The notes beneath the pieces are model-generated. The model worked only from the letters and a program-made list of their open reading frames with translations. It did not search any database and was not told the origin of the DNA. From an uncultured Candidatus Rokubacteria bacterium (GTDB lineage: Bacteria > Methylomirabilota > Methylomirabilia > Rokubacteriales > DASRDR01), in contig CAWDVE010000012.1 in NCBI GenBank assembly GCA_963805625.1, forward strand, positions 32,001 through 96,000: DNA of 64,000 bases. The letters run 5' to 3'. The position numbers and the translations under genes are program-made. Of this stretch, positions 35,030 to 50,341 are shown piece by piece (within the stretch, counting starts at the first letter, position 1; every line of letters begins with the position of its first letter).

Positions 35030-37480
35030 GTGCCCGCCCGCGCGCCTCCGGCTCCCCTCCCCGCTGGTCGCGTGGGCACCCTTCGCCGGAAACGTCCACC
35101 ACGACTGGCTCCGCTCCCCGACGGTCGGCCGGGCCCGCGTCCGAGGCTTCACGCGAACCGGGTGGGGCCGGCGCTTCGCCCGATCCTGACTCGCGACGCC
35201 GGGTCACCGCCTACCTCCGCCCCGCCTCCGACCCCTGGTGGCTCGGACCGCGAGGTCGCCGCCCCGGTTCTCGGTCTCCCGCGCCGTCGGCGCGGAGGGG
35301 CGCGGGCCGAGGCGACGGCGCTCCTCGCCCTCTACGGGTTGCTCCTCGTCGTCCCGTCGGCCAACTACCACCTCTTCGACGGCCTGCCTGCGAGCCGCGT
35401 GCCCGAATTCCTCGGGCTCGCCCTGCTCATCCCTTTGGTCGTCAGCCGGGCCCTCCGCCGCCTGTACGGCCGGCTCGTCGGCGGGTGGCCGGTGACGCGA
35501 CGTGCCCTCTTGGCGCTCGGCGCGGTCGCCCTCGCGGCGAAGGTCGTCCTGCTCGCCTCGGGGACTCATGCGGGCTTCCTGGCTTGCTACCGTTCGCCCA
35601 TCGCCGCGCCGCCCGCCGGACCCTGCGAGAAGTCATACGAGAACCCGTTCTCCCGCTTCGGCGTCACGCGGATCGACCGGCGTCTCGACTTCATCCCGGC
35701 CAACTGGGACCTGTCCTTCATCAACTCGCTGCGGTTCAACATCTATCACTGGGTCGCGGGCAACGTCGTCCGGGATCGTCTCCCCCTGGCCGCGACCTGG
35801 ACCGGGACGGTCGCGCGCTCGCGCGCCTGGACGGCCGAGGTACGCTACGTCGGCGCCGCCACCGTCCAGGTCGACTCGATGGAGCCGACGAGGCTCCGCC
35901 CCCGCTACGACACGCTGGCCGTCGCCCACGTGCCCATCCCCGCCGGCCGCCATCGCCTCGTCGTCACCTACGAGTTCGACGACGGCTCCCGAGTCGGCGA
36001 CGGGCACACGCGGGGCCCCTACGCCACCATTCGGCTGGCCCGGCTGAGCGAAGCGCCGGGCCCGGCGATGCCGGTGAGGCCGGTGCGACCGCCGCGGGCG
36101 TGGCGGTGGACCGGCGCGGCGGTCGACGCGGTCGTCGTCCTCCTCGCGGCGACGGTGGCCGGGGCGTGCGCCGTCGCTATGGCCCGCGAGGCGTGGATCC
36201 CGGCCGTCGTCGCGGTCGCGGCGGCCGGCAGCCACCTCTGGGACGGACGGCTGCCCGTCGTTCCGTCGCACTCGTGGTTCTTCCTCCTGCTCGCGCTCCT
36301 TTTCGCGCATCTCGCCCTGGGCGTCCGCCCGCAGCGGCTGCTGGGCGCCTACCTCGGCATCCTTGCGGCAGCCTTCTTCCTGGCGTGGCGGCGACTCGGC
36401 CGGTTGAACGTCGTCCAGTACCGGGCGGCCGGCGATGACTGGCTGACGTACGAGTCCTTCGCGCGGTCCATCCTCGAGACCTGGTCGCTCCGGGGCGCCG
36501 AGGACGTCTTCTACTACCAGCCACTCTTCCGCTACGTCCGCTTCGCCGAGCATTTCGTGCTGGGGGACGGCGATCCGTTCCTCCTGACGTGGGCGGTCGT
36601 GACGCTCACGTGGAGCCTATTCTGGCTCGGCGCGGTCGCGATCGGGCGGCGGCGCGCGTCGTTCCGGACCATCGTCCTCACCTTCGCCGGTCTGCTGCTG
36701 GTGCTGCTGGCGACCTCCCCGACGGTCCTCGACCTGGTGCACGCGGGAGTCTCCGAGTATCCAACCTGGATCGCGCTGCCCTTCTTACTGCCGATGCTCT
36801 TCGTGTCGTCCTCGACGAGGGCCTGGCTGCTGGGGGCGACCCTGCTGGGCCTCTCGCTCCTGACGAGAACGAACCAACTGCCGGCCGTCCTGGCGACGCT
36901 CGGGCTTTTCCTGTGGCGGGGCTGGCGGATCCGACCCCGCGCGGCCATCGCGGCCGGGCTCATGTTCGGCGCTGTCGCGCTGCTTCCCACGCTTCACAAC
37001 TACTACTACGGCGGTCGCCTGGTGCCGCTGACGACCAGCGCCGGGATCCCGGCGAATCTCGTGCTCCCGCCCGTGCGGTTGCTCGACGTCGCCCGCGACG
37101 CGGAGGTGCGGACGCGGCTCCGGACGCAGGTCGAGCGGATGCTGTACGTCGGTGGGTCCGACCGCGTCTTCGGGATGGCGGTCCGCGGGCTGCAGGTGCT
37201 GTGGGTGGTCACGGTCGGGGCGTGGGCGGTGACTGGCCGTGCGAGCTTGCCCCTCGCGCTACTGGTGGGCCTCCCCGTCTGCTACCTCGTTCCCCACGTC
37301 TTCTACCAAGCGACGCACGGCTATCCGCGGCACTTCCTCATTGGCTACCTCGCCATGGGGGCGGTCGTCCTCCTGGCCGAAGCGGGCTCGCGAGGCATTG
37401 CCCGGTCCGCGGCTCCGGCGATCGAATCGACGCCGCGAGAAGCGCCCATCATCCGGACGAGTCGGGGACCAATGGGCTGA
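35030..37480 (+). CDS. Large multi-pass membrane protein (GT-C-like) with PA14-like extracellular domain
   Basis: RIDRRLDF...ATWTG...G-x-H-x-L-x-V-x-Y beta domain, followed by GDDWLTYE, FYYQPLFRY and many TM segments. Start uncertain. Confidence 0.5.
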   Translation: MPARAPPAPLPAGRVGTLRRKRPPRLAPLPDGRPGPRPRLHANRVGPALRPILTRDAGSPPTSAPPPTPGGSDREVAAPVLGLPRRRRGGARAEATALLALYGLLLVVPSANYHLFDGLPASRVPEFLGLALLIPLVVSRALRRLYGRLVGGWPVTRRALLALGAVALAAKVVLLASGTHAGFLACYRSPIAAPPAGPCEKSYENPFSRFGVTRIDRRLDFIPANWDLSFINSLRFNIYHWVAGNVVRDRLPLAATWTGTVARSRAWTAEVRYVGAATVQVDSMEPTRLRPRYDTLAVAHVPIPAGRHRLVVTYEFDDGSRVGDGHTRGPYATIRLARLSEAPGPAMPVRPVRPPRAWRWTGAAVDAVVVLLAATVAGACAVAMAREAWIPAVVAVAAAGSHLWDGRLPVVPSHSWFFLLLALLFAHLALGVRPQRLLGAYLGILAAAFFLAWRRLGRLNVVQYRAAGDDWLTYESFARSILETWSLRGAEDVFYYQPLFRYVRFAEHFVLGDGDPFLLTWAVVTLTWSLFWLGAVAIGRRRASFRTIVLTFAGLLLVLLATSPTVLDLVHAGVSEYPTWIALPFLLPMLFVSSSTRAWLLGATLLGLSLLTRTNQLPAVLATLGLFLWRGWRIRPRAAIAAGLMFGAVALLPTLHNYYYGGRLVPLTTSAGIPANLVLPPVRLLDVARDAEVRTRLRTQVERMLYVGGSDRVFGMAVRGLQVLWVVTVGAWAVTGRASLPLALLVGLPVCYLVPHVFYQATHGYPRHFLIGYLAMGAVVLLAEAGSRGIARSAAPAIESTPREAPIIRTSRGPMG

Positions 37481-39302
37481 CCAGTCGTGCGAAGTAGGCG
37501 CTTTTCTCGACGACGTCCGCGTAGGACCCCGCCGCGGTGACCATGCCGTCTTCGAGGACGATGATCTGATCGCAACCGGCGATGGCGGAGGCCCGGTGCG
37601 TCACGGCGACGACGGTCCGCGGCTGATCGCGTCGGAGGGCCGCCCTGATCACCGTGGCCTCCCCATACGGATCCAGGGCGGAGGTCGCCTCGTCCAGGAC
37701 GAGGAGGCTGGGGTCGGAGTAGAGCGCCCGCGCCACGGCCAACCGCTGCCGCTGGCCGCCGCTCAGCGCCGACCCTCGCTCACCGAGCTGCGTGTGGAGC
37801 CCGCGCGGGAGCTGTTGGACCAGCTCCCAGAGCCCGACCTCCTCGAGCACGTGCTCGACACGGTCCTCGTCGATCGCGTCGGCGAAGAGCACGACGTTCC
37901 GGAGGATCGAGTCGTTGAAGATGTAGGGCTCCTGGGACACGACCCCGACGCCAGCCTGCCAGCCAGGTTCGAGTCCGCCCAGCGGCCGGCCGTCCAGTAG
38001 CACCTCGCCCGAAGTCGGCTCGAGCAATCCGACCAGGAGATCGACGAACGTGCTCTTCCCGGCACCGCTCGGCCCGACGATCCCCACGAAGCTGCCGGCC
38101 TCGATTCGGACCGTCACGTCACGCAGGGCCGGACGCTTCGACTCCTCGTACCAGGACGACACGCGCCAGAACTCGATGGCGACGTTCAGCACGGGAGGCC
38201 TCTTCGCCGGGCCGGTGCCGCCAGTGTATCGAGGACCGGCGGCGCCTCGAACGGGGACGTCCTGCAGCACCTGGTCGACGAACGGGAGACCGGCGCGAAC
38301 ATTCGCGAGATTGGTCGCGCTCCGGCCCGCCAGGGGCAACAGCCGGACGAGCGCGTACGCGAAGAGTCCGAGCATCGTCAGGACACGAGGCGTGTCGTAT
38401 TCCAGGCCGATCGTGAAGATGATGAGACTCGCGACTAGTATCATCGTGACACCCTCGATCACGATGCGCGGCAGGTCGACGAGGATCGCCCGATAACGGT
38501 TGGCGGCGGCCACCTTGGCGCGCTCCTCCCGGTGGCTGGACACCACGGGCGCCTCATGGTGGCGGAGGGTGATCTCGCGGCGTCCCTGCAGGACCTGATC
38601 CACGAACAGGTTCGCCGAGCGATCGTGCCGCTCGATGAGCGCGGTCGCTTCGTGGAGACGCGGGTTGACCGCCCTGACCAGCACGACGATCACGCCGGCC
38701 ACGAACGCCGCGGCGGCCAGCGTCCCCCACGGCGAGGCCACCACCATGACCGAGAGGATCGATGCGATGACGGCCGCGTCCGTAAGGAACTGGACGCCGG
38801 GCCGGAACACCTGCCACGCGACGAGCGTGGCGAGCTGCGAGACCCGCCGCTGGAGGTCCGCGACGCGGCGCTGCCTGAACCTGGCATACGGCATGCTCAC
38901 GTAGGCCCAGAGGAGGGCTTCGCCGATGACGATACCGGTCTCGACCGTCGCCGAGGAGGCGGCCGCCGTCAGCGCGAGAGTCAGGGCGGCCCGGAGCAGG
39001 AAGACGGCGACGACCACGGCCGTCACCAGAGCGGCCGTCGACGCCCCCACGAGGAGGAGCGGCGCTTCCGTCGCCCACGGCAGCAACGCCCGGGAGCCGG
39101 ACCCGGCCGACTGCGTCGCCAGCCGGATCACGTTGAGGAAGAGCGCGGTCGTGGCCAGCTCCGCCAGGGAGCAGAGACCGGTGAGGACCATCAGAAGAAC
39201 CCATCGGCGACGGACACGGCGGGGCAGCAGCCTGTAGATGGCCCGCGCCCGCGCCCACACCGACGCGGACGTGACCGGATCGCCCGCGTCCACCCGTGGC
39301 AT
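37449..39302 (-). CDS. ABC exporter, fused permease and ATPase
   Basis: GPSGAGKST, LSGGQRQRLAVARALY, LDEATSALD and VTHR motifs, with an N-terminal TM domain and no C39 peptidase domain. Start is at 39302 or 39452. Confidence 0.9.
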   Translation of the reverse strand: MPRVDAGDPVTSASVWARARAIYRLLPRRVRRRWVLLMVLTGLCSLAELATTALFLNVIRLATQSAGSGSRALLPWATEAPLLLVGASTAALVTAVVVAVFLLRAALTLALTAAASSATVETGIVIGEALLWAYVSMPYARFRQRRVADLQRRVSQLATLVAWQVFRPGVQFLTDAAVIASILSVMVVASPWGTLAAAAFVAGVIVVLVRAVNPRLHEATALIERHDRSANLFVDQVLQGRREITLRHHEAPVVSSHREERAKVAAANRYRAILVDLPRIVIEGVTMILVASLIIFTIGLEYDTPRVLTMLGLFAYALVRLLPLAGRSATNLANVRAGLPFVDQVLQDVPVRGAAGPRYTGGTGPAKRPPVLNVAIEFWRVSSWYEESKRPALRDVTVRIEAGSFVGIVGPSGAGKSTFVDLLVGLLEPTSGEVLLDGRPLGGLEPGWQAGVGVVSQEPYIFNDSILRNVVLFADAIDEDRVEHVLEEVGLWELVQQLPRGLHTQLGERGSALSGGQRQRLAVARALYSDPSLLVLDEATSALDPYGEATVIRAALRRDQPRTVVAVTHRASAIAGCDQIIVLEDGMVTAAGSYADVVEKSAYFARLVSPLVPDSSG

Positions 39303-39537
39303 CACGATCGGCGGCGCGACGCTCGACCGCTCAGGGAGCGCGCCGGGACACGACCCCACGAATGGCTCGTCGTGGGCGGCCCCATACTTTCGGTGCCCGC
39401 CGTCGGACCTCGGCCTCGAGGCCGCCCGGACATCGATGGCGGCCCGATCCACGATCCACGCCGGCGCCCAGGAGCGCCGATGGGCCCGCTTTGGGCGTGG
39501 GCATCACCGGGTCGATGGCCTCGGCACGGCGGCGGGT

Positions 39538-40728
39538 TCAGTGATGATGGTGCTCGTACGCCCCCGCGGCGAGCCGGAAGAGGCGAAGGGGGTAGTGGAG
39601 GAATGACAGCGCGCGCGGCAGTCTCCGCGCTGCCCAGTCCTCGACCGTGAGGGTCGTCATCGCCAGCCAGCAGTACCGGACCCGATGGCGCCACCGCTCC
39701 CGGACGCGGAGCTGGAATCGGGCCTGCTCGAGGAGGCCGGAGGGGCGGCCGTCGTCCCGAAACAGCCGCGCCCGGACCGCGGCTGCCAGCGTAGGGACGA
39801 CGGCGTCCACCTCCGCCCGCCGCCGCACCGGCCCGGGCATCGGGGCGCCGAGCAGGTCCGCGGCCACTCGGAGCCCCAGCGCGAGCATCCGCTCGCTGGC
39901 AGCTTGCCGGGCCTCCGCCACCATTCGCGCCCAGTCGAGGCCGGGCCGGGCCCGCGTCAGCTCGGCGATGTCGCAGATCCAGATCAGGCGCTCCCACATG
40001 TGCTTGGCTCCGTGCTCGCAGAGGCTCGGCAGGAGGACCTCGGGCGCTAGCGTCGTGACGGTGGTGCCGGCAATCGTGACCGGCTCGAGCCGCTCCCAGA
40101 GTCGCTTGGGCTCGAGGAGCAGCGAGACGTGCCGCGGCGAGATCTCCCAGTGCAGCTCCACCATGGCCGATCGGTCGGGGCGCACCAGCGAGTAGGCGTG
40201 CTGGGACTCGACCAGCGCCTGCTCCTGGCTCTGGCTGAGCGCCACGTTCGGACGGAAGCCCTCGGCGACCAGGACGTCCTTCGCGCGTAGCACCTCCTGC
40301 TTGTTCACCAGGATGTCGAGATCGGAGAAGTCCCGGAGGCCGACGTGGCCGTAGGCCGTCATGGCCAGGGCCGGGCCGCGGTAGGGGATGGCCGGGATGC
40401 CCTCAGCGGTGAAGCGTTTCAGGATGGAGCAGAGCTGAAGGGCCAGGAAGAGGTTGCGGCGCTGGGTCTTCTCGAAGCTTTCCCTGAGGCGCTCGGGCAC
40501 CCCGGCGGGGAGCAGGCCGGGCTCCACCCCCTTGAGGTGCCAATGCACCAGTGGCAGCACCCCGTGCCATCGGGCCGTTCGGAGGATGTACTCCCAGTCG
40601 AGCTCCCGGTCGAGAAGCCCACGGAGGCGCTCGGCCGTCGGCGGGTCCATCCGCGTGCGCGCGCAGGCCAGCAGGAGCTCGCCCTCGGGACGGGAGCTGG
40701 TGGGTCCCGCCGGGGTGCCGGGTGACAC
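39538..40728 (-). CDS. Nucleotidyltransferase family protein (NTP_transf_5-like, lasso-cluster type)
   Basis: WHGVLPL, PYRGPALA..YG...LRDFSDLDILV, VELHW and HGAKH.W.RL.W..D motifs. Confidence 0.88.
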   Translation of the reverse strand: MSPGTPAGPTSSRPEGELLLACARTRMDPPTAERLRGLLDRELDWEYILRTARWHGVLPLVHWHLKGVEPGLLPAGVPERLRESFEKTQRRNLFLALQLCSILKRFTAEGIPAIPYRGPALAMTAYGHVGLRDFSDLDILVNKQEVLRAKDVLVAEGFRPNVALSQSQEQALVESQHAYSLVRPDRSAMVELHWEISPRHVSLLLEPKRLWERLEPVTIAGTTVTTLAPEVLLPSLCEHGAKHMWERLIWICDIAELTRARPGLDWARMVAEARQAASERMLALGLRVAADLLGAPMPGPVRRRAEVDAVVPTLAAAVRARLFRDDGRPSGLLEQARFQLRVRERWRHRVRYCWLAMTTLTVEDWAARRLPRALSFLHYPLRLFRLAAGAYEHHHH

Positions 40729-41017: not shown

Positions 41018-41293
41018 ATGTCCAATGCGTTCGTCGCAGCAAGGGGGTTGGAAACGACCCCCCTTGAGGAAGGCGCCGTCCTGTTCCATCCAAAGCTCGG
41101 CAAGTTCGTCATGCTCAATCGATCGGCGGCCTTCCTTTGGAGCGAACTGGCGACGCCCAAGACGGAGGAGGAGCTGGCCCGTCGCTTCGCGGCCAACTTC
41201 ACCGATGCGGCGCCGGAGACGTCTCGGCAGGACGTGCGTGAGGCCCTGGCCAAGCTGCGGGAGTTGGAGCTCGTCTCCCCGGCTGAGGCCTAA
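41018..41293 (+). CDS. Stand-alone PqqD-family RiPP recognition element (RRE)
   Basis: 91 aa: EEGAVLFHP..GKFVMLNRSAAFLWSEL..PKT.EEL...F......DVREALAKLRELELV. GAGGGA RBS upstream. Confidence 0.9.
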   Translation: MSNAFVAARGLETTPLEEGAVLFHPKLGKFVMLNRSAAFLWSELATPKTEEELARRFAANFTDAAPETSRQDVREALAKLRELELVSPAEA

Positions 41294-41319: not shown

Positions 41320-41466
41320 ATGGATCAGCAGGCGACGGCGCGGTACGAGCGGCCCTCGATCACAGTGATGGACGAAGAGGAGCTGCTGAAGGTCTTCCAG
41401 ATGACGGCAGCGGAGATCAGCGTGGCGTCCTGCTGGTGGAACGCCTGCCCGACCGGTTGCCCGTAA
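41320..41466 (+). CDS. Putative RiPP precursor peptide, 48 aa: MDQQATARYERPSITVMDEEELLKVFQMTAAEISVASCWWNACPTGCP
   Basis: Manually translated. GGGGAGG RBS lies 7 nt upstream of the ATG, directly after the RRE gene. YxxPxI RRE-binding motif, acidic leader and Cys/Trp-rich C-terminus. Confidence 0.88.
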   Translation: MDQQATARYERPSITVMDEEELLKVFQMTAAEISVASCWWNACPTGCP

Positions 41467-41492
41467 CGCCCACATCCTCGATCGTTCGAGCT

Positions 41493-41531
41493 CACGGCCT
41501 CGGTGCTCCGGCAACGGACGCCGAGGCCGTG
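41493..41531 (+). terminator. Strong stem-loop downstream of the precursor (mRNA stabiliser or leaky terminator)
   Basis: CACGGCCTCGGTG-C-TCCG-[GCAA]-CGGA-CGCCGAGGCCGTG forms about 17 bp of stem with a GNRA tetraloop, followed by a poor U-tract (tgttg). Confidence 0.7.
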
Positions 41532-41601
41532 TGTTGATGAGCGCCTTCTTGCGAATCCTGGGCGTCGCGGCCTGCGACTGACGCGAAGCGGGGGACAAGG
41601 A

Positions 41602-42420
41602 ATGGGAGCAGCGGCTCAGTACGCCACGAAGGTCGTACGTGGAGTGACTCTCCGTGCGGACCCGGCCCGCGAGGCCTGCTTCAAGGTCGTGAACGACGCC
41701 ACCGATCTGGCGGACTATGCGGACATGTCGCCGGTGGCCCGGCGTCAGCGGCTCCACAAGCACATGCACAACGAGATGCAGAGTCTCGAGATGGCGGCGC
41801 AGTCCGTGGCCGACTTCCCCGACGCGCCGTGGGACGTCAGGATGGGGCTGGCCCGCCAGTGCTGGGACGAGACCCGGCACTCTCAAATCCTCCACCGGCG
41901 GCTCCGGGAGGTCGGGGGCTACAAGGGCGAGTTCCCGGTGATGAACTTCGAGTGGAGCATCACCTGCATGATGGACTCTCTCTCCGCGCGGCTGGCCATC
42001 CAGAACCGCACGTTCGAGGGGGGGGAGATCGACCTCCTGCGGCATCTTGTCGGCGTGTGGCGGGAAGAGGGCGACAACGACACCGCCGATCTCCTCGACG
42101 GGATCCTCGTCGACGAGATCCAGCACGTCCGCCTGGCCAACGAGTGGTTCAAGCAGATGTCCCGGCAGGATCCGACGGTGCTGCTGAAGCTGGCCGCGGC
42201 CGTCAACTTCCTGAAGCGCGTCACCCAGGCGTTCCAGCCGGCTCCCGGCGAGGTGAATGCCGCCGGCGTGAACCTCACCGGCTTCGAGCATGTCGAGATG
42301 CTCTCGAACGTCGAGGACCGGCTCCGCGCGGGATTCACGGAGCGGGAGATCGCCCAGATCCAGCTTCAGGAGAGCCAGCTGCGGGCCTCTGCGGCAGCAG
42401 AGAAGACCGCCGTATCCTAG
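41602..42420 (+). CDS. Ferritin-like diiron protein (DUF455-like), paralogue 1
   Basis: Four-helix diiron ligand pattern: HNEMQSLE, WDETRH, NRTFEGG and DEIQHV. Confidence 0.8.
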   Translation: MGAAAQYATKVVRGVTLRADPAREACFKVVNDATDLADYADMSPVARRQRLHKHMHNEMQSLEMAAQSVADFPDAPWDVRMGLARQCWDETRHSQILHRRLREVGGYKGEFPVMNFEWSITCMMDSLSARLAIQNRTFEGGEIDLLRHLVGVWREEGDNDTADLLDGILVDEIQHVRLANEWFKQMSRQDPTVLLKLAAAVNFLKRVTQAFQPAPGEVNAAGVNLTGFEHVEMLSNVEDRLRAGFTEREIAQIQLQESQLRASAAAEKTAVS

Positions 42421-42437: not shown

Positions 42438-43547
42438 GTGTCAACCGCCGTCGGACTCGGCCGGTGGAACGCGACGCTCGAGCGCGTCCTGGAGGCGCCG
42501 GAGCCGCGGCCCCGCCAGACTGAACCAGTCTGGTTCCGGTTCGGCGACGGGTTCTTGGAGGTCGTCTCCGACCACGAGCCGCTCCTCCGCGACCTCGAGG
42601 CCTTCTACGGGGACTGCGGGATCGCCGAGCCTCCCGCAGAGGGATGTCGGGTCCGCTGCACCGCGAGCCTGCTCCCCGGCGTCCCGTTGCTGTCCCTCTC
42701 GTTCAGCGGGCCACGCCAGCCCGATCTGATCGAGGTCGCGCGGAGCCCCTACCGGTTTCGCCGGCGCGAGCCGTACATCGAGGCTCCCGGCCCGGCGCCC
42801 GGCTGGCGCCTGCTGGTGAATCGCGATGCGGACGACCGCCTCCTCATCGCGACCAACGGCCGGGTGAGCTTGGTCAACCTCGACGAAGCGCCGGCCGAGT
42901 TCGTCGTCGACCTGGTCGTCTCCGCGGCCCAGAGTATCCAGACCGGGGTGCTGTTCCTCCACGCCGGCTCCGTGGGCGTCGGCGGAACGGGCGCCCTGAT
43001 CATCGCCCCGACCAACGGGGGCAAGTCGACGACCACCCTCGCCCTGGCGCGGCGCGGCCATGCCTTCCTCGGCGACGACGTGGCGGCGGTGCGGCTGGCC
43101 ACCCGCGAGCTGCTGCCGTTCCCGAGGTCGGCCGGGCTGCGGGAAGGATCCCTGGCCCGATCCCTGGAGGGGCAGGTGCAGGGGTGCCGCCACGTGCGCG
43201 CCACGAACCGTCACGGGATCGAGCGGGCCGTCGTGCGGGTCAGCGATCTCTTCCCCTGGTCGGTCAGCGGCCCGCTGCCCCTCCGGTTCGCGTTCGTCCT
43301 CGACGGGCTGGCGGAGAGCGCCGCGATCTCGGAGTTCCGGCCTGGGCTCGGCGAGCTGCCCCGGCTCCAGTCGACGGTGACCGACACGTCGACATCCTGG
43401 GGGCTCTCGCCCGGGCGTGACCTGATGCTGTTCCTCTCGGTGGTGAACCTTCTGTCCGGCCTGCGCTGCCATCTCGTGCAGCGCGGCTCCCCGGACGAGA
43501 CCGCACGCGTCATCGAAGCCGCCATCATGGAGGGAACATGTACCTGA
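42438..43547 (+). CDS. HPr kinase-related P-loop kinase
   Basis: LFLHAGSV....GALIIAPTNGGKSTTTLALARRG..FLGDD..V......LPFPR. GTG start inferred. Confidence 0.8.
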   Translation: MSTAVGLGRWNATLERVLEAPEPRPRQTEPVWFRFGDGFLEVVSDHEPLLRDLEAFYGDCGIAEPPAEGCRVRCTASLLPGVPLLSLSFSGPRQPDLIEVARSPYRFRRREPYIEAPGPAPGWRLLVNRDADDRLLIATNGRVSLVNLDEAPAEFVVDLVVSAAQSIQTGVLFLHAGSVGVGGTGALIIAPTNGGKSTTTLALARRGHAFLGDDVAAVRLATRELLPFPRSAGLREGSLARSLEGQVQGCRHVRATNRHGIERAVVRVSDLFPWSVSGPLPLRFAFVLDGLAESAAISEFRPGLGELPRLQSTVTDTSTSWGLSPGRDLMLFLSVVNLLSGLRCHLVQRGSPDETARVIEAAIMEGTCT

Positions 43548-44098
43548 ACGTGAAGGAGCGGGGCGACCACGTAGCCACCTTTCGCTGGATCGAGGTGCGC
43601 CTGATGGAGATGTTGGCCGCCTGGGTCCCCACCACGCCCGAGATGGAGGTGAAGCTCGTCTTCGGAGCCCACATCTGGGAGGCCGCGCAGCATGCGGACG
43701 CGCTGGGGAAGCGGACCCACGAGCTGCGGCTGCCCCTCCACGACAGCCTCGAGCCCGCCCGTGGGTACGTCGACTTGCTCACGGAAGTGGCCAGGACGAC
43801 CGACACCAGCAAGCGGATCGCCGCGTTCTACGATTGCCTGCTCCCGGGCCTCGAGCAGCGCTTCCGGCGTTACATCGAGCGGGTCGACACGCTCCTGGAC
43901 GGCCCCACCGTCCGGATCCTCGAGCGGATCATGGGCGACATGGCCCGCATGACGGCCGACTGTCGCGCCCTCCTAGAGGAGGTGCCGGCCGTCAAGCTCA
44001 AGGACCACAAGTGGCTCGATGCGCTGCGCCAGCGCGAGGCAGGTCTCGGTGACATCATCGTCCACCGGGTGTCGAGCCCGGCGGCGGTCCCGGCGTGA
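43538..44098 (+). CDS. Short ferritin-like protein with degenerate metal ligands, paralogue 2
   Basis: WIEVRLMEMLAAWVPTTPEMEVKL.FGAHIWEAAQHADALGKR..EL. The second ExxH is absent. GGAGG RBS, and the gene overlaps the kinase stop. Confidence 0.6.
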   Translation: MYLNVKERGDHVATFRWIEVRLMEMLAAWVPTTPEMEVKLVFGAHIWEAAQHADALGKRTHELRLPLHDSLEPARGYVDLLTEVARTTDTSKRIAAFYDCLLPGLEQRFRRYIERVDTLLDGPTVRILERIMGDMARMTADCRALLEEVPAVKLKDHKWLDALRQREAGLGDIIVHRVSSPAAVPA

Positions 44099-44808
44099 GC
44101 GTCATGGCCAGCATCGGCACGATCGTGGTGCGCGGTGGCGTCACTCTGCGAGCGAGCCCGGCTCGAGACTCCTGCTTCAGGATCGTCACCGACCAGGCCG
44201 ACATGGTGAAGCATCCCGACGGGTCGCTCGAAGCGCGTCGGGAGCAGCTGCACAGCGATGTGAACAACGAGCTCCAGAGCCTGGAGATCGCCGCCCAGTC
44301 GATCGTCGACTTTCCCGAAGCGCCCTGGGAGCTGCGCCTCGAACTGGCCCGCCAGTGCTGGGACGAGGTACGCCACGCCCGCCTGTTCCTCGGCCGGCTT
44401 CTCGCGCTCAAGGGATACCTGGGGGAGTTCCCCATCATCAACCAGGAGTGGGGCGTCGTCTGCATGTTCGACTCCCTCCCGGCGAGACTTGCGGTCCAGA
44501 ACCGGATCTTCGAGGGCCTGTCACTCGACGTCTTCAAGGAGAGCGTCGAGGTGTGGGCGGGCTGGGGCGATCCCGAGACGGCCGAGGTCATGGAAGGCGT
44601 CATGGTCGACGAGATCCGGCACGCGGCATTTGCCCAGGAGTGGCTTCGCCGCCTGGGAGCCGGTAACCCGGGCGTGACGCTCAAGGCCGTGGCGGCCATG
44701 AGCCAGCTGAAGACGATGAGCATCGCCTTGACCCCCGCCGGGCAGAAGATGGAGCACGAGATCCCGGTCAACACCGAGGACCGGCGTCACGCCGGGCTTC
44801 CCATCTGA
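44095..44808 (+). CDS. Ferritin-like diiron protein (DUF455-like), paralogue 3
   Basis: NNELQSLE, WDEVRH, NRIFEG and DEIRH motifs. Clearly similar to 41602-42420 (VRGGVTLRASPARDSCF versus VRGVTLRADPAREACF). Confidence 0.8.
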   Translation: MSVMASIGTIVVRGGVTLRASPARDSCFRIVTDQADMVKHPDGSLEARREQLHSDVNNELQSLEIAAQSIVDFPEAPWELRLELARQCWDEVRHARLFLGRLLALKGYLGEFPIINQEWGVVCMFDSLPARLAVQNRIFEGLSLDVFKESVEVWAGWGDPETAEVMEGVMVDEIRHAAFAQEWLRRLGAGNPGVTLKAVAAMSQLKTMSIALTPAGQKMEHEIPVNTEDRRHAGLPI

Positions 44809-44816
44809 GTTCGCCC

Positions 44817-45560
44817 ATGAGTACGCCTCAGGACGCCGCTCGCCCTCCGCTCGACCCGGCGCTGTTCGCCGATGGCCCGGCGCGCGATTCGCGGTTCGCG
44901 GTGAAGGACCGCTGGATTGAGATGGCCAACACCCCGGCCGACCATCCCCTTCATCAGATGGAATTCACGCATCGCCAGATGAACGAGGAGATCAACGGCC
45001 TCGAGTGCTCGGCGCGCGGCCTGAGCGACTTCCCGGACGCGGCCTGGGAGCTCCGGATGGCGCTGGCCAGGCAGTGCGTCGACGAGGCGCGCCACGTCAA
45101 GATGTTCCGGCGCCTCCTCGAGCGCCTCGGAGGGCACGTCGGGCAGTTCCCGGTGCTCAACTTCCAGTACCGCATCATCACGAAAGCGGACAGCCTGATC
45201 GGCCGGCTGACGATCCAGAATCGTACGTTCGAGGCTGGCGGGCTCGACGCCGTCTCCGCGGTGGTCGAGCAGATGCGGGCGAGGGGCGACGACGACCTCG
45301 AGCTGTTCTTCGACTCCCAGCTGGCCGACGAGATCCTCCACGTGCGCTTCGCCAACGAGTGGATTCGCCGGCTGATCCACGAAGACCCGCGAAACGTTCT
45401 CCGGATGGGGAGCGCGATGACGGCCGCGGCGAAGGCGTTCAAGCAGGTGATGGGAAGGGAAGGGACGGAAGGAGTCAGCTATCCCACCGACAGACAGGCT
45501 CGTTTGGAGGCGGGGTTCACCCCCAGTGAGGTCGAGATGGACGCGGGGTCCAAGGCCTAG
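44817..45560 (+). CDS. Ferritin-like diiron protein (DUF455-like), paralogue 4
   Basis: NEEINGLE, VDEARH, NRTFEAGGLD and ADEILHV motifs, with a C-terminal ARLEAGFT as in DUF455. Confidence 0.82.
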   Translation: MSTPQDAARPPLDPALFADGPARDSRFAVKDRWIEMANTPADHPLHQMEFTHRQMNEEINGLECSARGLSDFPDAAWELRMALARQCVDEARHVKMFRRLLERLGGHVGQFPVLNFQYRIITKADSLIGRLTIQNRTFEAGGLDAVSAVVEQMRARGDDDLELFFDSQLADEILHVRFANEWIRRLIHEDPRNVLRMGSAMTAAAKAFKQVMGREGTEGVSYPTDRQARLEAGFTPSEVEMDAGSKA

Positions 45561-45594: not shown

Positions 45595-46200
45595 ATGACG
45601 AGGTCGCTCAGCGAGGCGGACACGGCGACGTCCCGTCCTGATCCGGTCCAGGCGGTCGCGGCTTTCTTCCGGGAGGATCCGGCGCGCATCCTCGCTGTCG
45701 CTTCGAGCCTCCGAGGCCCCGACCGCAGCATCGAGTCCACCGTCGAGGGTAAGAGCATGGGGCGGACGCTCCCGCCCGGCTCTCGGATCCGCATCGAGCT
45801 GGCCGATCGACCCGGTTACGAGGTCGGGGAGGTGGTCGCGTTCCTGGCCCGGGGCAAGGTCGTCGTGCACCGGGTGGTGCACAAGAGCCAGCGGGGTGCG
45901 GCTCGCGGCCGGCTCCTCACGCGGGGCGACGCCGCGCTGGTCCCCGACCCGGCGATCGACGTGGCGAGCGTCCTGGGCGCGGTGACCGCGATCGACCGTG
46001 ACGGAGGCTGGGTGCCGCCGGATGGACGGCCCCGCCGATCGCTCCCCGCTCGAGTCGTGGCCTCGCTCGCGCTGGCCATCGTCGCGCGCGTGCTGGAGGC
46101 GAGCCCTCGGGCCGCGGACGTCGTCGTGCGGCTGCTCCACCGAGGACGGCCGCTCCATGCGGCGTGCCTGCGTCACGGCGGGCGAGGGGTGGCACCATGA
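45595..46200 (+). CDS. S24/S26 family (signal-peptidase-like) Ser/His peptidase
   Basis: VEGKSMGRTL..G, GEVVAF, VVHRVV and TRGD motifs. No N-terminal TM anchor. Confidence 0.82.
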   Translation: MTRSLSEADTATSRPDPVQAVAAFFREDPARILAVASSLRGPDRSIESTVEGKSMGRTLPPGSRIRIELADRPGYEVGEVVAFLARGKVVVHRVVHKSQRGAARGRLLTRGDAALVPDPAIDVASVLGAVTAIDRDGGWVPPDGRPRRSLPARVVASLALAIVARVLEASPRAADVVVRLLHRGRPLHAACLRHGGRGVAP

Positions 46201-46961
46201 AGCTGGTCGCCCAGACCTCGCAGTTCCACGTCTATGACGACGTCCTGCTGGAGAAGGATTTCCGCGCGGTTTGGAACTACGTCCAGCTCGAATCGTACGT
46301 GCCGGTACACCACGACGGCTGGGTGAAGGTCTGGCGCATCTCCGACGGCGTCCCGCTGGGCGCGTTGGCGACCGTGCTCTACGAGAGCCCCAAGCGTCCG
46401 GCCGGATCGGAGGACGCCAAGGGCACCCGCATCTATCCCACGCACACGGGGCTCGACCGGGTGCTGGAAGCCCTCAGGACCCATGCCGACCAGCTGGCCG
46501 ACCTCGTCGGCAAGTGGGGCGCCGATTTCGACAACGTGAGCGCTCGTGCGTTCCTCTATCCGCAGGGGACGGGGCTGTCCTGGCACGAGGACGCGGTCAA
46601 CTACACCGGCGGGTACGCCTTCTACGCGCATCCGGAATGGAACGTCCAGTGGGGCGGCGAGCTCCTCGTCGCCGACGAGTCCGCCAGGTCCCAGCATTTC
46701 GAGGACGACCGGCTCCCGGTTCTTACGCGCACGGAGGAGGGGCTCCGGCTCACCAAGGTGCGCATCCCGCCGTTCCTCGACAATGCGCGCCAGAATACCG
46801 TGCTCGCGCAGCGCGGCATGGGATGCTACATCACTCCGAAGCCCAACCGACTGGTCGTGATCGCTGCCGGGAACGCCCACATGATCAACCGGGTCCACCC
46901 GGCCGCCGGAGACCACGTCCGCTGCACGATCGCGGGCTTCTTCATCTCCTCCAAGGTTTGA
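46197..46961 (+). CDS. Fe(II)/2-oxoglutarate oxygenase (prolyl-4-hydroxylase-like)
   Basis: LSWHED, Y.HPEWNVQWGGEL, PKPNRLVV...H.I..V and R.TIAGFF motifs. ATGA-coupled. Confidence 0.85.
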   Translation: MKLVAQTSQFHVYDDVLLEKDFRAVWNYVQLESYVPVHHDGWVKVWRISDGVPLGALATVLYESPKRPAGSEDAKGTRIYPTHTGLDRVLEALRTHADQLADLVGKWGADFDNVSARAFLYPQGTGLSWHEDAVNYTGGYAFYAHPEWNVQWGGELLVADESARSQHFEDDRLPVLTRTEEGLRLTKVRIPPFLDNARQNTVLAQRGMGCYITPKPNRLVVIAAGNAHMINRVHPAAGDHVRCTIAGFFISSKV

Positions 46962-47017
46962 CCGCGAGCGGAAGCATGCGTCGGCCGCTGCCAAGGGCCG
47001 CCTGAGACCGTCGGCCC

Positions 47018-48721
47018 ATGCGGGGTGGCTTCGTCGTCTGCCTGAACGGAAACGGGCGCCTTCTCGACCAGGTCGTCGAGCACGTGCGCTGGCACCACGG
47101 CAAGGGCATCCGGGATCACCGCGATGGCCTGGAGATCGCCGCCCTCGTCGACGGCGCCGACGGCCCGGCCATCGAGATCGGAGCCGGCCGGACCGTCCTG
47201 GTCCATGGCGCCGCCCCGGCGCCCCTCGCCGAGCTCCAGCGCCGCGGGACGCGGTTCGCGGCGATCGAGTGGGACGGAGTGCGATTGCGCGCCAGCCGGG
47301 ATCCGATGGGCCTCGCCCCGCTGTTCTACCGGGCGTATCAGGGAGTCGTGTGGCTTGCCACGGAAGTGCAGCCCCTGGTCGCCCTGGGACGCGCGGCTCC
47401 GGACCTGGAAGCGCTCACGGCCAGGACCGCGTTCACCCCGATCGACGATCGGACGGGCTGGGAGGGCATCGGGCGCGTGCTCCCCGGGTCGACGCTCGAG
47501 TTCGGCCCCGATCGGCAAGTCTCCTCCGCCCGCTACTGGCAACCGGCCGAGGCCCTCGGTCGGTACCGGGGCAGTCGCGCCGAGGCGCTGGCGGAGTTCC
47601 GGGAGCGGTTCCGCACGGCGGTGGGGCGGTGCTACGAGCCCGGTGGCGGCATCCTGCTCAGCGGGGGTCTCGACTCGGCGGCGGTGGCCCTGACGGCGGC
47701 CGAGCAGGGGCAAACCCGCCCGCATCTGGTGCATGTCCACTTCCCCGACCTTCCCGAGACGCACGAGCAAGGATACGCCAGTGCGGTGGCGGCCGCCGTT
47801 GGCGCTCCGCTCCACGTCGTCCCCGGGCAGGTCGACCCCTGGGACGTGGACCCCGAGCTCGACGGCTGGGGAGGGATCGCTTACAGCTGGGTGCCCTACG
47901 GCATGGAGGACCCCGCCCTGGCCCACATGGCGGCCTCGGGTGTCACGGTGGCGCTGGACGGCCACGATGGAGATGGCGCCCTCGGTCCCCTCGGCTCCAA
48001 CTGGGGCGACATGATCCTGAAGGGGGAGCTTCGCCAAGTCGCCGCGCTGGCCGTGCGCCATGGCGCGTGGGCGCTCGTCCGCGGGGTCGCCGTCGATTTC
48101 CTTCCGCCGTACGCCTGGTTACGCCGGCTGGCCGGCCGCCCTCCCCGAGCAACCTACATGCAGTCGGTCGCTCACTACTTTCGCGGGCCCCTCCGCGACC
48201 GCAGCCTCGCGGCCGACATCGAGCGGTGGACGTGGCCGTCGAGGCGCTGGGGGGTGCGGCAGCTCCAGCCGCTGCTTCCGCGTGCGACGATCTCCTTCGA
48301 GCAGAAGGAGCTCGAGGCGGCTCGCCACGGCCTCGACATGCGCCATCCCTTTGCCGACCGTGAGCTGGTCGAGTTCCTCATCTCGCTCCCGTCGGCCGTG
48401 AAGAGCGATCCGATGCGTCCCAAGGCGATCCTCGTGGACAGCCTGAGCGACCTGCTTCCCAAGGCCGTCCAGCAGCGCCCAAAAAGCGACTACATGGCCG
48501 CCGTCCGACAGCGGGTGGACCCGGCCGCCTGCATCGAGAGGATCCGGGCCTCGGGCGTTCGCCTGCCGGGCATCGAGTACGGACGACTCCTGGACGACGC
48601 CCGGCTCGATCCCAACGGGCTGCCGCTGTTCTTCCTCGTCAATCTCACCCGGATCCACGCGTTCGCCCAGCGGGCCCTCGAAGCGGCCGGCGGCTCCGGG
48701 AAGGGGGCGCCCCATGTCTGA
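47018..48721 (+). CDS. Asparagine-synthetase-related ATP-dependent amide ligase (lasso-cyclase-like), lacking the glutaminase Cys
   Basis: RDPMGLAPLFY, LSGGLDS, GHDGD and RHPFADRELVEF motifs. The N-terminus is MRGG rather than MCG. Confidence 0.82.
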   Translation: MRGGFVVCLNGNGRLLDQVVEHVRWHHGKGIRDHRDGLEIAALVDGADGPAIEIGAGRTVLVHGAAPAPLAELQRRGTRFAAIEWDGVRLRASRDPMGLAPLFYRAYQGVVWLATEVQPLVALGRAAPDLEALTARTAFTPIDDRTGWEGIGRVLPGSTLEFGPDRQVSSARYWQPAEALGRYRGSRAEALAEFRERFRTAVGRCYEPGGGILLSGGLDSAAVALTAAEQGQTRPHLVHVHFPDLPETHEQGYASAVAAAVGAPLHVVPGQVDPWDVDPELDGWGGIAYSWVPYGMEDPALAHMAASGVTVALDGHDGDGALGPLGSNWGDMILKGELRQVAALAVRHGAWALVRGVAVDFLPPYAWLRRLAGRPPRATYMQSVAHYFRGPLRDRSLAADIERWTWPSRRWGVRQLQPLLPRATISFEQKELEAARHGLDMRHPFADRELVEFLISLPSAVKSDPMRPKAILVDSLSDLLPKAVQQRPKSDYMAAVRQRVDPAACIERIRASGVRLPGIEYGRLLDDARLDPNGLPLFFLVNLTRIHAFAQRALEAAGGSGKGAPHV

Positions 48722-49475
48722 CGCCGCGGCGGGGACGGGTTCGGCCGCGTCCGCGCTCGCGCGGGACGGCTTCGCCGGTCCGTTCCCGCTCGGGACCCCG
48801 GCCCAGATGAGCGTCGTGGCCCTCCAGCTGTTCAAGTCGGTGTTCACCCGGCCGGGACCCTTCGCCGACGACCCCTTCCTCGATCGCCACCTCGATTCGC
48901 CGCTGGTCGCCCACCTGGCCACGCATCCCGCGATCCTCGCCCGGGTCGAGCCGCTCCTGGGCGGCGACCTCGTCGCCTGGCGATCGATCTTCTTCGCCAA
49001 GGGCCCGACGAGCCGGGAAGTGCCGTGGCATCAGGACGGCCACTTCTGGAACCTCGATCCGCCGATCACGCTCACCGCGTGGCTCGCGATCGACCGCGCC
49101 CACGGCGCCGATCACTGCATGGAGGTCGTGCCCGGCTCCCACCGGACGGCGCTTCCGCACGTCCCGTCGGCTCCGGGATCCCAGTTCCCGGAGAGCACCG
49201 CCCCCGGGTCCTTCGACCTCTCCCGAGCGATCGAGCTGCCGGTGGATGCCGGGATGTTCGTCCTGTTCGACCAGCGCCTCGTGCACCGTTCGAAGGGAGG
49301 CGGCCAGGCGCGGCGCCTCGCCCTTTCGGTGAGGATCGCCCCCGCGCACGTCCGGATCCCCCCCCACTTGCTGCCTCCGGGTGGCCGCGTGCTGCCTTTT
49401 GGGTGGAGGTCCCTCGCCGAGTCACCCCTCGAGGCCTCCCGGTCCGCCTCGTCCGACCCGCGCCGCGCCTCGTGA
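48714..49475 (+). CDS. Phytanoyl-CoA dioxygenase (PhyH)-family Fe(II)/2OG oxygenase
   Basis: FFAKGP..VPWHQDG.FW, TAWLAID, VVPGSH and LVHRS..RRLA motifs. Confidence 0.88.
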   Translation: MSDAAAGTGSAASALARDGFAGPFPLGTPAQMSVVALQLFKSVFTRPGPFADDPFLDRHLDSPLVAHLATHPAILARVEPLLGGDLVAWRSIFFAKGPTSREVPWHQDGHFWNLDPPITLTAWLAIDRAHGADHCMEVVPGSHRTALPHVPSAPGSQFPESTAPGSFDLSRAIELPVDAGMFVLFDQRLVHRSKGGGQARRLALSVRIAPAHVRIPPHLLPPGGRVLPFGWRSLAESPLEASRSASSDPRRAS

Positions 49476-50341
49476 CGCGCCCCGGCGACGCCAGCCCGGC
49501 CGACGCCGCCATGCGGGAGGCGCGCGAGCAGTCCTGGTTCCACACGATCAATCTTCCCGACGGCAGCAGCACGCGCGGTGTCTTCGACAACCGGGGCGTG
49601 GCCCGGCTGGTGCAGTGGCCGGCCGGCCTGCCCGGCGGCCGGTGTCTCGACGTCGGGACGTGTGACGGCTTCTGGGCCTTCGAGATGGAGCGCCGCGGCG
49701 CCGCCGAGGTCACCGCGATCGACGTGGACGACCCCGCCCACCTCGACTGGTCGTGGGAGTCCCGCCGCAACCCAGACGCCACGCAGGCATGGCGGGCGCG
49801 TCGGGGCCACCGCTTCGACATCGCCCGCCGCGCTCTGGGGTCGCGGGTGAACCGGGTGGCCTGCTCCGTCTACGATCTCGACCCGTCCGTCCACGGCCGG
49901 TTCGACGTGGTCTTCTGCGGGACCCTGCTGGTGCATCTCCGGGACCCGGTCCGGGCGCTCGAGCGCATGCGCGAGGTCTGCGCGGGCGAGCTCGTTCTCG
50001 TCGAGTGCATCGACGCGGTCCTGGACGTGGTCGCCTGGCGGGTGCCTTGCGCCCGATTCACCCCGGCGGCCGAGCAGTGGTGGCGGCTCAATCGGGCCGG
50101 GCTCCTCCGCATGCTGCGGGTCGCCGGCTTCGACGTGCTGTGGGCGAGCCGCCGGTTTCACACGCCGTTCGGGCCGAGCGTGCTGCTTCACCCGTCCCGG
50201 CGGTTCGGGCCGCTCCGCGCCGGCCGGGCGGCGGTGGCCCAGGTGCTGCGGGCGTTCCCGAGCGCCCCGGTCCTGGCCGATGCCGCCGGGCTGGCGCTGG
50301 GCACGTACGACGTCGCCGTCCGCGCCCGGCCCCGACCGTGA
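49472..50341 (+). CDS. Class I SAM methyltransferase (CmoB/DUF1698-like)
   Basis: WFHTINL, RCLDVGTCDGFWAFEMERRGA and FDVVFCG.LLVHLRDP motifs. GTGA-coupled (alternative ATG at 49511). Confidence 0.85.
   Translation: MTRPGDASPADAAMREAREQSWFHTINLPDGSSTRGVFDNRGVARLVQWPAGLPGGRCLDVGTCDGFWAFEMERRGAAEVTAIDVDDPAHLDWSWESRRNPDATQAWRARRGHRFDIARRALGSRVNRVACSVYDLDPSVHGRFDVVFCGTLLVHLRDPVRALERMREVCAGELVLVECIDAVLDVVAWRVPCARFTPAAEQWWRLNRAGLLRMLRVAGFDVLWASRRFHTPFGPSVLLHPSRRFGPLRAGRAAVAQVLRAFPSAPVLADAAGLALGTYDVAVRARPRP

Follow-up and report, generated by a model that had tools for sequence, protein, structure and literature searches.

Here we report a gene cluster of an uncultured Candidatus Rokubacteria bacterium that may represent a new RiPP class, a reading to which we assign a probability of about 0.55. 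In this class, alpha/beta ferritin-like diiron maturases, made of DUF455 and a common subunit without ligands, would oxidise or cross-link a Trp-Trp motif. Their origin would be a housekeeping DUF455 pair that was adopted by the chassis of the linear polyphosphorylated peptides (LPP); the class would be widespread among bacteria from soil and sediment, and DUF455 would gain its first biochemical function. In the searchable open literature, no reaction is assigned to DUF455 and no ferritin-like diiron enzyme was found described as a RiPP maturase; nor, as the sequence-only reading had stated, was any DUF455-dependent RiPP found there (subscription journals lay outside the search). Co-expression offers a direct test of what DUF455 does and of the putative new peptide chemistry, because the enzyme, its predicted partner and a small candidate substrate occur side by side, and because the cultured bacterium Ramlibacter monticola KACC 19175 has one of these clusters (locus L005).

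Gene content and order

The window, i.e. the whole stretch of 64,000 nucleotides that was analysed, contains the following features, which are surrounded by glycosyltransferase genes.

37449..39452, minus strand: MsbA/HepA-like ABC exporter (PF00005 and PF00664); accessory, in 11/18 long loci
39538..40728, minus strand: NTP_transf_5 nucleotidyltransferase, LppN-like (PF14907, 204 bits); in 15/18 long loci
41018..41293, plus strand: discrete RRE, PqqD-like (PF05402, 56 bits, cutoff 23.4)
41320..41466, plus strand: putative 48-aa precursor, behind GGGGAGG (GC3 0.88)
41490..41534, plus strand: stem-loop 3' of the precursor stop (z -2.05 for the 135-nt gap; no U-tract)
41602..42420, plus strand: DUF455 paralogue D1, full E/ExxH/E/ExxH ligand set
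42438..43547, plus strand: HprK-like P-loop kinase, LppK-like (PF07475 E 2e-5, TIGR04352 E 1e-9, both below cutoff)
43538..44098, plus strand: ligand-less ferritin-like four-helix bundle, here called the partner (model pLDDT 94.9)
44095..44808 (start at 44095 or 44104), plus strand: DUF455 paralogue D2, full ligand set
44817..45560, plus strand: DUF455 paralogue D3 (ligands E58, E90, H93, E139, E172, H175)
45595..46200 (open frame from 45526), plus strand: archaeal-type signal peptidase I, S26 (TIGR02228 E 3e-9)
46197..46961, plus strand: P4H-like 2OG-Fe(II) oxygenase (PF13661/PF13640, 24 bits, cutoff 27); rare accessory
47018..48721, plus strand: Asn-synthetase-like ATP-dependent amide ligase without Cys1 (AsnB-like; PF00733, 104 bits); accessory
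48714..49475, plus strand: PhyH-family 2OG-Fe(II) oxygenase (PF05721, 81 bits); accessory
49472..50341, plus strand: class I SAM methyltransferase (profile matches); accessory

Every gene listed in the sequence-only reading was recovered at its position and in its order, as were the five overlaps: ATG at 43538 in the end of the kinase gene, GTGA at 44095, ATGA at 46197, ATG at 48714 in the end of the AsnB-like gene, and GTGA at 49472. The three DUF455 proteins scored 87–99 bits (cutoff 34.3), and the top NCBIfam matches of the exporter, MsbA and HepA, were both under their cutoffs. The kinase has conserved GK-T and GD motifs, and a close homologue of the P4H-like oxygenase was present only in loci L001 and L012. 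A sigma-70 promoter and a U-tract terminator were looked for at the cluster, and neither was found. Di-haem MauG/CcP-like genes lie close to the cluster, and also close to those of loci L016 and L083; they are neither conserved nor orthologous.

Recurrence in other genomes

The check proposed with the sequence-only reading, whether a PqqD-like protein and a short peptide ORF recur across genomes, had a positive outcome: a block of RRE, precursor, DUF455 proteins, partner and S26 peptidase was found in several phyla, in taxa including Burkholderiales, Ramlibacter, Steroidobacteraceae, Acidimicrobiia and Gemmatimonadaceae. Since the loci were chosen through D3, this gene is present in all of them by construction. 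Using search profiles built from these same D3-anchored loci, and with the window included in each count, precursor, RRE and partner were detected in 28/28 loci with at least 4.3 kb upstream, the partner in 48/48 loci with at least 1.7 kb upstream, and S26 in 60 of the 61 loci with at least 600 nt downstream. The kinase was present in 23 of the 28 loci; the DUF455 proteins, which are the constant enzymes of the cluster, and the partner were never missing. Because peptide and gene order are kept in dozens of other loci, the cluster is not a chance assembly, and the recurrence supports the earlier assignment to a RiPP-type system with conserved RRE and precursor.

Stand-alone DUF455 loci (12–17 kb) served as control: matches to RRE, precursor, kinase or S26 occurred in 0/10, and the partner was adjacent in 10/10. 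Of the 201 genomes of the host phylum, 150 have a DUF455-family match, and in most cases this is a stand-alone DUF455/partner pair with no peptide; DUF455 therefore has a non-RiPP job and could use a small molecule here. The degenerate precursor pattern had no matches in viral contigs, and plasmids yielded five records, every one below 30% identity.

Precursor peptide and RRE

The precursor gene is single-copy in the genome of the window and encodes a leader with Y9xxP12 and F26-Q27-M28-T29, followed by the predicted core (T)AAEISVASCWWNACPTGCP with three Cys. The family consists of 145 clusters at 50% identity and keeps the pattern YxxP...FQx(T/S)...WW, with P12, L23, Q27, W39 and W40 invariant across 26 aligned precursors. 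The label "Cys/Trp precursor" holds for its Trp part, WW being present in 110 of 116 parsed family representatives; the Cys before it is optional, with CWW in just 32/116 and WW without preceding Cys in 78/116, and C38 is invariant among 27 distinct long-type segments. Many cores stop 1–3 residues past WW, and others have long Cys-rich tails. Differences from the window peptide, counted over 30 distinct DNA segments, fell on third (400), first (214) and second (156) codon positions.

The RRE has N34 in 39/39 and D72 in 35/39 sequences and matched TbiB1 with an E value of 0.002. RRE and precursor are fused in frame in 8 of 38 RRE frames, and more such fusions exist among family representatives of both core types; the cluster of Ramlibacter monticola KACC 19175 has one as well. 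Downstream of the precursor, 13 of 36 80-mers had z < -2 against mononucleotide shuffles, versus 0/40 coding controls; a likely role of the stem-loop is to stabilise the transcript over RRE and precursor. RNA-library contigs from three studies span RRE and precursor, but such contigs are no evidence of transcription or of its level.

The presence of tailoring genes goes with the sequence of the peptide: a gene for an HFCD Cys-decarboxylase-like flavoprotein was present in 9/12 loci in which the precursor has a C-terminal Cys (the other three contigs start less than 600 nt before the precursor) versus 0/30 others, and, among the 18 long loci, in 3/3 versus 0/15, counts that come from related loci and correspond to about two events. 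This co-variation, the fusions and the codon pattern are indirect signs that enzymes of the cluster may modify the precursor.

The peptide might alternatively be a scaffold for a small Trp-derived molecule (a PQQ/TTQ-type indolequinone cofactor or a bis-indole) that is fully excised. The many cores ending 1–3 residues after WW, the presence of several oxidases and the nearby di-haem genes agree with this; against it stand the single conserved protease, the lack of conservation and orthology of the di-haem genes, and the lack of a recurring cofactor-dependent dehydrogenase among 78 neighbouring proteins. The long Cys-rich tails and the link between HFCD and C-terminal Cys further point to a tail that stays on the peptide and undergoes modification, and we consider full excision unlikely.

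DUF455 enzymes and their partner

The six ligands that define diiron enzymes (E, ExxH, E, ExxH; available part of PMC13061610) are invariant in D3 (89/89) and D1 (36/36) and kept in 41–42 of 42 D2 sequences. The seventh His of AurF-type N-oxygenases, which the same part of that source (PMC13061610) places at position -4 from the last Glu ligand, is replaced by Ile (D1), Val (D2) and Gln (D3). Four diiron proteins had been proposed, and three of them have full ligand sets; the fourth (43538–44098) has the ferritin-like fold and no metal ligands, the E90 equivalent being A/V/L, the second ExxH absent and the first Glu present in 21/57 sequences.

The D3 model, of moderate confidence (pLDDT 66), is a four-helix bundle closest to enzyme-type ferritin-like proteins, such as the ADO-like 6d9f (Z 13.3, rmsd 3.5, 195 aligned) and R2lox (Z 12.8), Z values near 13 being common for helical bundles. 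The DUF455 profile matched bacterioferritin (E 3e-6), and a sequence search for solved structures brought up no DUF455 relative. With Foldseek, neither the D3 nor the partner model had a match at E ≤ 0.001, the ferritin-like matches of the partner all having E > 0.001, and the homology of partner and D3 rests on the fold because their profile-profile comparison was not significant (probability 0.3).

PaaA/PaaC and the toluene monooxygenase hydroxylase combine catalytic alpha with metal-free beta subunits. Chains of both are among the fold matches of the D3 and partner models, and these enzymes share with the present system the four-helix bundle, the E/ExxH/E/ExxH pattern and the homologous ligand-less partner. 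The identity of known ferritin-like diiron oxygenases (PaaA/PaaC, toluene monooxygenase hydroxylase and the single-subunit ADO, R2lox and AurF/Dob3) to the proteins described here is 10–20%, and the present system differs from them in having no reductase or ferredoxin in the conserved block, an apparently ribosomal peptide as substrate, and no AurF-type seventh His.

A complex was predicted for D1 and the partner with an ipSAE of 0.94 (best control 0.00). In a calibration that holds only roughly here because the alignments were custom-made, 116 of 157 solved complexes attained this mark, as did 2 of 215 mismatched pairs. At least 98% of contacts agreed between runs, and the pLDDT of the partner was at least 95. 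Within the partner, conservation is higher at interface columns (0.83) than elsewhere (0.63), and the surface on the DUF455 side is mostly kept in D1, D2 and D3. From these models, the partner is predicted to serve the DUF455 enzymes as structural (beta) subunit, which would account for the unannotated gene beside DUF455 in every locus examined. Long proteins joining partner and DUF455 (12 of 30 matches) had junk-like linkers in those that were read and were dismissed as frameshift artefacts; other matches read through into the adjoining carboxylase, and none of these proteins was taken as fusion evidence.

Clusters carry 2–4 DUF455 paralogues; D2 is absent in some, and minimal clusters have two (D3 and one of D1/D2 type). 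D1 lies immediately 3' of every Cys-Trp-Trp precursor, and a DUF455 gene directly follows the precursor in 28/28 CWW cases versus 0/5 without Cys, again in related loci and hence not as independent events. This positional link, together with the invariant C38 and the three Cys of the window core, is in favour of a main chemistry at Cys, i.e. a Cys-Trp thioether or an MNIO-like oxazolone- or thiooxazole-like heterocycle in a metal-binding peptide. We regard this as rather improbable, and more so than excision: WW has no preceding Cys in most representatives (78/116), and five such loci still hold two DUF455 proteins, partner and RRE. A Cys-specific role of D1 is also weakened, since a sister gene of D1 lies behind the partner gene in clusters without the Cys.

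Proposed pathway

Judged from sequences and models, DUF455/partner heterodimers probably oxidise the Trp-Trp core before RRE-guided cleavage by S26, the link between enzymes and peptide resting on co-occurrence. The RRE would bind the YxxP leader, as suggested by lasso and LPP precedent and by the natural RRE-precursor fusions. The alpha/beta complexes would then act on the WW core with O2, by ring hydroxylation and/or cross-linking; the two DUF455 paralogues of minimal clusters might serve one Trp each, and in CWW cores D1 may take the chemistry further, to the Cys.

The S26 protein scored 37 bits with TIGR02228, under its cutoff of 51.85, and has the catalytic S77, H115, D135 and D141 in 65/65 sequences and, by hydropathy, no N-terminal membrane anchor. 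By analogy with LppS it is likely the leader peptidase and would cut in an RRE-dependent manner at FQx(T/S), just before or after T29. This site was preferred in view of the invariance of FQx(T/S) and of LppS cleavage after F-E-T; an Ala-X-Ala signal-peptidase cut just before xCWW was set aside. The unmodified segment T29–P48 has a monoisotopic mass of 2065.87 Da. The set of accessory enzymes differs between clusters: kinase and nucleotidyltransferase would add phospho or nucleotidyl groups to Ser/Thr, the AsnB-like ligase would use an external amine to convert a carboxylate into an amide, the 2OG oxygenases and the methyltransferase may tailor the product further, and the ABC transporter would export it, possibly linked to surface polysaccharide.

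Comparison with known systems

According to the available text of PMC13381572, the LPP chassis, with the lpp cluster of Paenibacillus alginolyticus as reference, consists of SpI peptidase, RRE, HprK-like kinase, NTase and MsbA-like ABC transporter in polysaccharide loci and is restricted to Bacillota. The S26/SpI protein LppS is its leader peptidase, and the precursor consensus is YxxPxVLxHQxIxFETxxS with a variable C-terminus and Ser3 as polyphosphorylation site (PMC13381572, same part). The window cluster has the archaeal-type SpI with Ser/His/Asp, a discrete RRE with the YxxP-binding Asn/Asp pair (N34/D72, equated with LppB N33/D70 by position, without alignment), and kinase, NTP transferase and MsbA-like transporter (relatives: 23/28, 15/18 and 11/18). 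It also shares the YxxP leader, the F..T motif at the C-terminal end of this leader, the polysaccharide-locus position and the patchy distribution. It differs in being found outside Bacillota, in its constant core of 2–4 DUF455 proteins and partner with a dispensable kinase, and in its precursor: the leader is about five residues longer and lacks HQ, FQx(T/S) has a longer spacing, A-A-E follows T29 with S34 as first Ser, RRE-precursor fusions occur, and WW is conserved. The cut site is uncertain, since a cut after Thr would put F at -4 and the leader thus departs from LPP spacing. A term search of six supplements of PMC13381572 returned no DUF455. With these loci the SpI/RRE chassis reaches far beyond Bacillota, and it would accommodate another core chemistry.

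The presence of all LPP genes, the position among glycosyltransferases and the common stand-alone DUF455/partner pairs are compatible with an LPP-like phosphopeptide cluster in which DUF455 and partner leave the peptide alone and, as the stand-alone pairs may do, make or recycle a small co-substrate or protect against oxidants. This is the least improbable of the alternatives, just ahead of the excised scaffold, and still unlikely: it is the kinase that is missing in 5/28 loci, never the DUF455 proteins and partner; 2–4 paralogues occur per cluster, with the position of D1 tracking Cys; and WW is near-invariant, whereas LPP C-termini are variable in the available text.

The proposed DUF455 system resembles MNIO (DUF692) RiPPs (methanobactin MbnBC, TglHI) and HDOs that modify ribosomal peptides, in which, in the available parts of PMC12141560 and PMC13108848, a non-haem multi-iron enzyme acts with a partner on a precursor. 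Families and folds are different, and the partner here is a paralogous bundle, not an RRE-bearing protein; the window proteins had no DUF692 or haem-oxygenase-like Pfam match.

The sequence-only reading had seen a lasso chassis that lost its B2 protease; the gene set is instead the published LPP chassis (available text of PMC13381572) and not a degenerate lasso cluster. As far as available descriptions go, paeninodin/pseudomycoidin-type lasso clusters share the YxxP leader, RRE, HprK kinase, NTase, ABC exporter and, in some loci, an AsnB-family protein. A lasso peptide with S26 in place of B2 and cyclisation by the AsnB-like protein would fit the leader, the Thr near the predicted junction and the AsnB-like protein without Cys1, but is highly improbable. 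No B2 transglutaminase-like peptidase was matched by Pfam or NCBIfam in 17 window proteins or 78 neighbours, and core positions 7–9 have no Asp/Glu (A-S-C if cut after T29, V-A-S if before), the sole acid lying at +3 or +4 and being Q/K in 7/27. The AsnB-like protein scored 92 bits with the lasso cyclase model (cutoff 525), and its gene is optional (9/18 long loci at ≥45% identity); its N-terminus is M/V-RGGF in 17/17 homologues, and SGG(L/Q)DS is kept in the 14/14 that are long enough.

All genes named in the sequence-only reading were found in the order and on the strand that it gave, with concordant Pfam/NCBIfam labels, and the five gene overlaps were verified in the window sequence. The 48-aa precursor ORF has a strong ribosome-binding site, a GC3 of 0.88 and a single copy in the host genome. 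Glycosyltransferases, a second asparagine synthetase and two transposases surround the cluster:

41018-41293 (+), PqqD-like domain (RRE)
41320-41466 (+), precursor
43538-44098 (+), ferritin-like partner protein
45595-46200 (+), signal-peptidase-like protein (S26), the likely leader peptidase
50469-52523 (-), di-haem MauG/MbnH-like protein, convergent with the cluster and outside the conserved block
19289-37480 and 53108-61375, polysaccharide-type island with several GT2/GT4 glycosyltransferases
26944-29088, full asparagine synthetase in the island
53108-54262, GNAT in the island
33563-34612 and 57179-58393, two transposases in the island

Di-haem genes unrelated to that of the window also lie near loci L016 and L083. 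RNA-library contigs (three libraries, 3 studies), which may derive from DNA, span the RRE-precursor junction with 6-54 differences over 423-576 nt.

The third of the three DUF455 (PF04305) paralogues, D1-D3, had 1754 relatives at E ≤ 0.001 among 2897 candidates. The alignment scan comprised 8 genome loci and 80 kept out of 376 confirmed metagenome loci; these 88, one further locus and the window make up 90 D3-anchored loci, with record titles that include Burkholderiales, cultured Ramlibacter monticola, Steroidobacteraceae, Acidimicrobiia, Gemmatimonadaceae and Candidatus Acidoferrum. Precursor, RRE and partner were present in 28/28 loci with at least 4.3 kb upstream (kinase in 23/28), the partner in 48/48 with at least 1.7 kb upstream, and S26 in 60/61 with at least 600 nt downstream; the profiles were made from the same loci, many of them related, so the counts are a measure of synteny, not a statistical test. 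The 18 longest precursor loci contained the NTase (15/18), ABC (11/18) and window-type AsnB-like (9/18) genes, and less frequently P4H, PhyH and methyltransferase genes. Given these counts, the constant core consists of RRE, precursor, two to four DUF455s, partner and S26.

From 42 loci, 33 distinct precursors were obtained, and 26 aligned precursors share the invariant residues P12, L23, Q27, W39 and W40. When 1.84 billion representatives were searched with a profile, 145 clusters were found; the representatives of 116 were parsed by pattern (29 unparsed or too long). The sequence-only reading had asked whether the RRE and a YxxP...CWW-type peptide recur; both genes do, and WW is kept in 110/116 parsed representatives, but only 32 have CWW. 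Long cores have nine residues from FQx(T/S) to WW, the last being Cys; short cores, the majority, mostly have four to six residues before WW and no Cys there. A DUF455 gene lies directly 3' of the precursor in 28/28 CWW and 0/5 Cys-less clusters, the D1-sister gene of the latter being further downstream. Two Cys-less clusters (L079:11887-13771, L090:5822-6757) lie beside fatty-acid-hydroxylase-family genes and several full asparagine synthetases.

Three lines of sequence evidence say that the peptide is the putative substrate of the cluster: divergence of its DNA biased to third codon positions, in-frame RRE-precursor fusions, and co-variation of an HFCD flavoprotein with a C-terminal Cys. Fusions were found in 8/38 RRE frames, R. 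monticola included, and in about a dozen cluster representatives; P0258, a 434-aa representative with an RRE and the precursor at its end, suggests a larger fusion. The flavoprotein (PF02441; weak CypD-family match) occurs in 9/12 loci with a Cys-ending precursor and 0/30 others, a pattern of about two events, since one clade accounts for eight of the nine and the remaining one, L106, is of the short-core type, with 56% identity.

L003:6175-6639, L005:6310-6771 and six other loci, RRE-precursor fusion genes
L057:3626-7799, L044:2964-6579 and L106:6104-6655, Cys-ending-precursor sub-family with HFCD flavoprotein

L057 additionally has an APH-type kinase (weak LxmK-like match) and methyltransferases, a gene set that may indicate decarboxylation of the C-terminus or AviCys-like chemistry.

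D1, D2 and D3 share 35-48% identity. Their six ligands (E58, E90xxH93, E139, E172xxH175 in D3) are invariant across D3 and D1 and kept in 41-42/42 D2 sequences; a passage of PMC13061610 assigns six such ligands to all ferritin-like diiron oxygenases and, to N-oxygenases, a seventh ligand, a His that is absent from the D1, D2 and D3 sequences. The D3 model (pLDDT 66) matched aldehyde-deformylating-oxygenase-like, R2lox, PaaA-like and monooxygenase hydroxylase chains (Z 12-13), matches that establish the predicted fold, not function. The fourth supposed diiron protein, the partner, is confidently modelled (pLDDT 94.9) as a ferritin-like bundle, with all structural matches at E > 0.001, but conservation shows it to lack the diiron ligands. 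In three runs a predicted D1-partner complex scored 0.94 (ipSAE), and the highest score among three controls was 0.00. The mark of 0.94 was reached by 116/157 solved complexes and 2/215 mismatched pairs, counts that are approximate owing to custom alignments. Contacts agreed by at least 98% between runs, with a partner pLDDT of at least 95. Sequence search found no solved structure of a DUF455 relative; ferritin-like dimers are solved, so recall by likeness may feed the prediction. The contact surface is largely kept in D1, D2 and D3 alike, which suggests that the partner may be a subunit shared by them, as in PaaA/PaaC.

S26 retains Ser, His and Asp in 65/65 sequences and has no N-terminal hydrophobic anchor by hydropathy. 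The AsnB-like protein lacks Cys1, so its amine is predicted to come from outside; in RiPP pathways, enzymes of AsnB type turn C-termini into amides or nitriles, according to passages of PMC13060819.

The origin from a lasso chassis first proposed was not supported: this is no lasso cluster, and the closest system is that of the linear polyphosphorylated peptides (LPP; PMC13381572). In LPP clusters, which are found within capsule loci of Bacillota, SpI-like LppS cleaves after F-E-T in an RRE-dependent manner and Ser3 is polyphosphorylated by LppK. By analogy, recruitment would be as in LPP and cleavage probably so. The chassis is shared, but the cluster is no LPP member: its leader does not fit the consensus, Ser3 is absent, its host range goes beyond Bacillota and its kinase is dispensable. 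The host also has a second RRE, HprK-like kinase and NTase group without DUF455 (L011:5982-9087, contig C13), possibly another LPP-chassis variant; the long ORF beside it resembles a radical SAM enzyme.

The cluster represents a real, widespread RiPP-type family on the known LPP chassis, apparently not yet described. Among the open-literature DUF455 papers listed, no title or abstract opening concerned RiPPs, and combined searches on RiPPs with ferritin-like, diiron or S26 proteins listed no such class, although subscription journals, bioRxiv supplements and image-only files could hold such a report; PF04305 had 0 matches there, and two DUF455 passages go no further than assigning a fold and mentioning the protein in proteomics. 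DUF455 was absent from the searched supplements of PMC10036551 (5 files), PMC7470986 (10 files) and PMC11117315 (3 files, the one row displayed being of VioB type), DUF455/PF04305 from 6 searched LPP supplements, and DUF455 and ferritin from a term search of the LPP main text (PMC13381572); the RRE-Finder main text mentions neither ferritin, S24 nor S26. HDOs are cited in ribosomal peptide modification in a passage of PMC13108848, a precedent for dimetal RiPP enzymes in general. The DUF455 proteins, members of an unassigned family, are candidate class-defining enzymes, and we rate a new RiPP class slightly above an even chance.

The best explanation, with a probability of roughly 0.6, is that the DUF455 proteins and their partner would oxidise Trp in the WW core, followed by leader removal by S26. 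Oxidation of Trp is favoured for three reasons: no core feature other than WW is conserved, no oxidases other than the DUF455s are constant, and alpha/beta ferritin-like enzymes are established catalysts of arene hydroxylation or epoxidation. The proposed enzyme-peptide link draws on gene co-occurrence; against it, the cluster encodes no electron donor, and DUF455/partner pairs also stand alone, with no peptide.

DUF455-family matches occurred in 150/201 genomes of the host phylum (the unpublished G058, G101 and G029 included, which enter no other claim), and cluster-type matches (better than 1e-90) in only 3 of them (the host, G086 and G068). The partner gene was adjacent in 10/10 stand-alone DUF455 loci (12-17 kb), and 0/10 had an RRE, precursor, kinase or S26 match. 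Because the pair is widespread without peptide genes and the cluster type so rare, the pair predates the peptide cluster and serves a different purpose, and the cluster is a specialised derivative of patchy occurrence. The host genome also has such a pair amid housekeeping genes (L009:8664-10028, contig C13), with, judging from translations, a DNA polymerase IV-like gene on one side and a biotin carboxylase-like gene on the other; as an alpha/beta diiron enzyme it may have a housekeeping role. Stand-alone pairs with a ligand-less partner (L009, L107-L116) are near-universal in the host order. A third, more distant partner-like sequence of the host (L010:6072-6422, contig C25; 29% over 114 aa) is also a weak D3 match.
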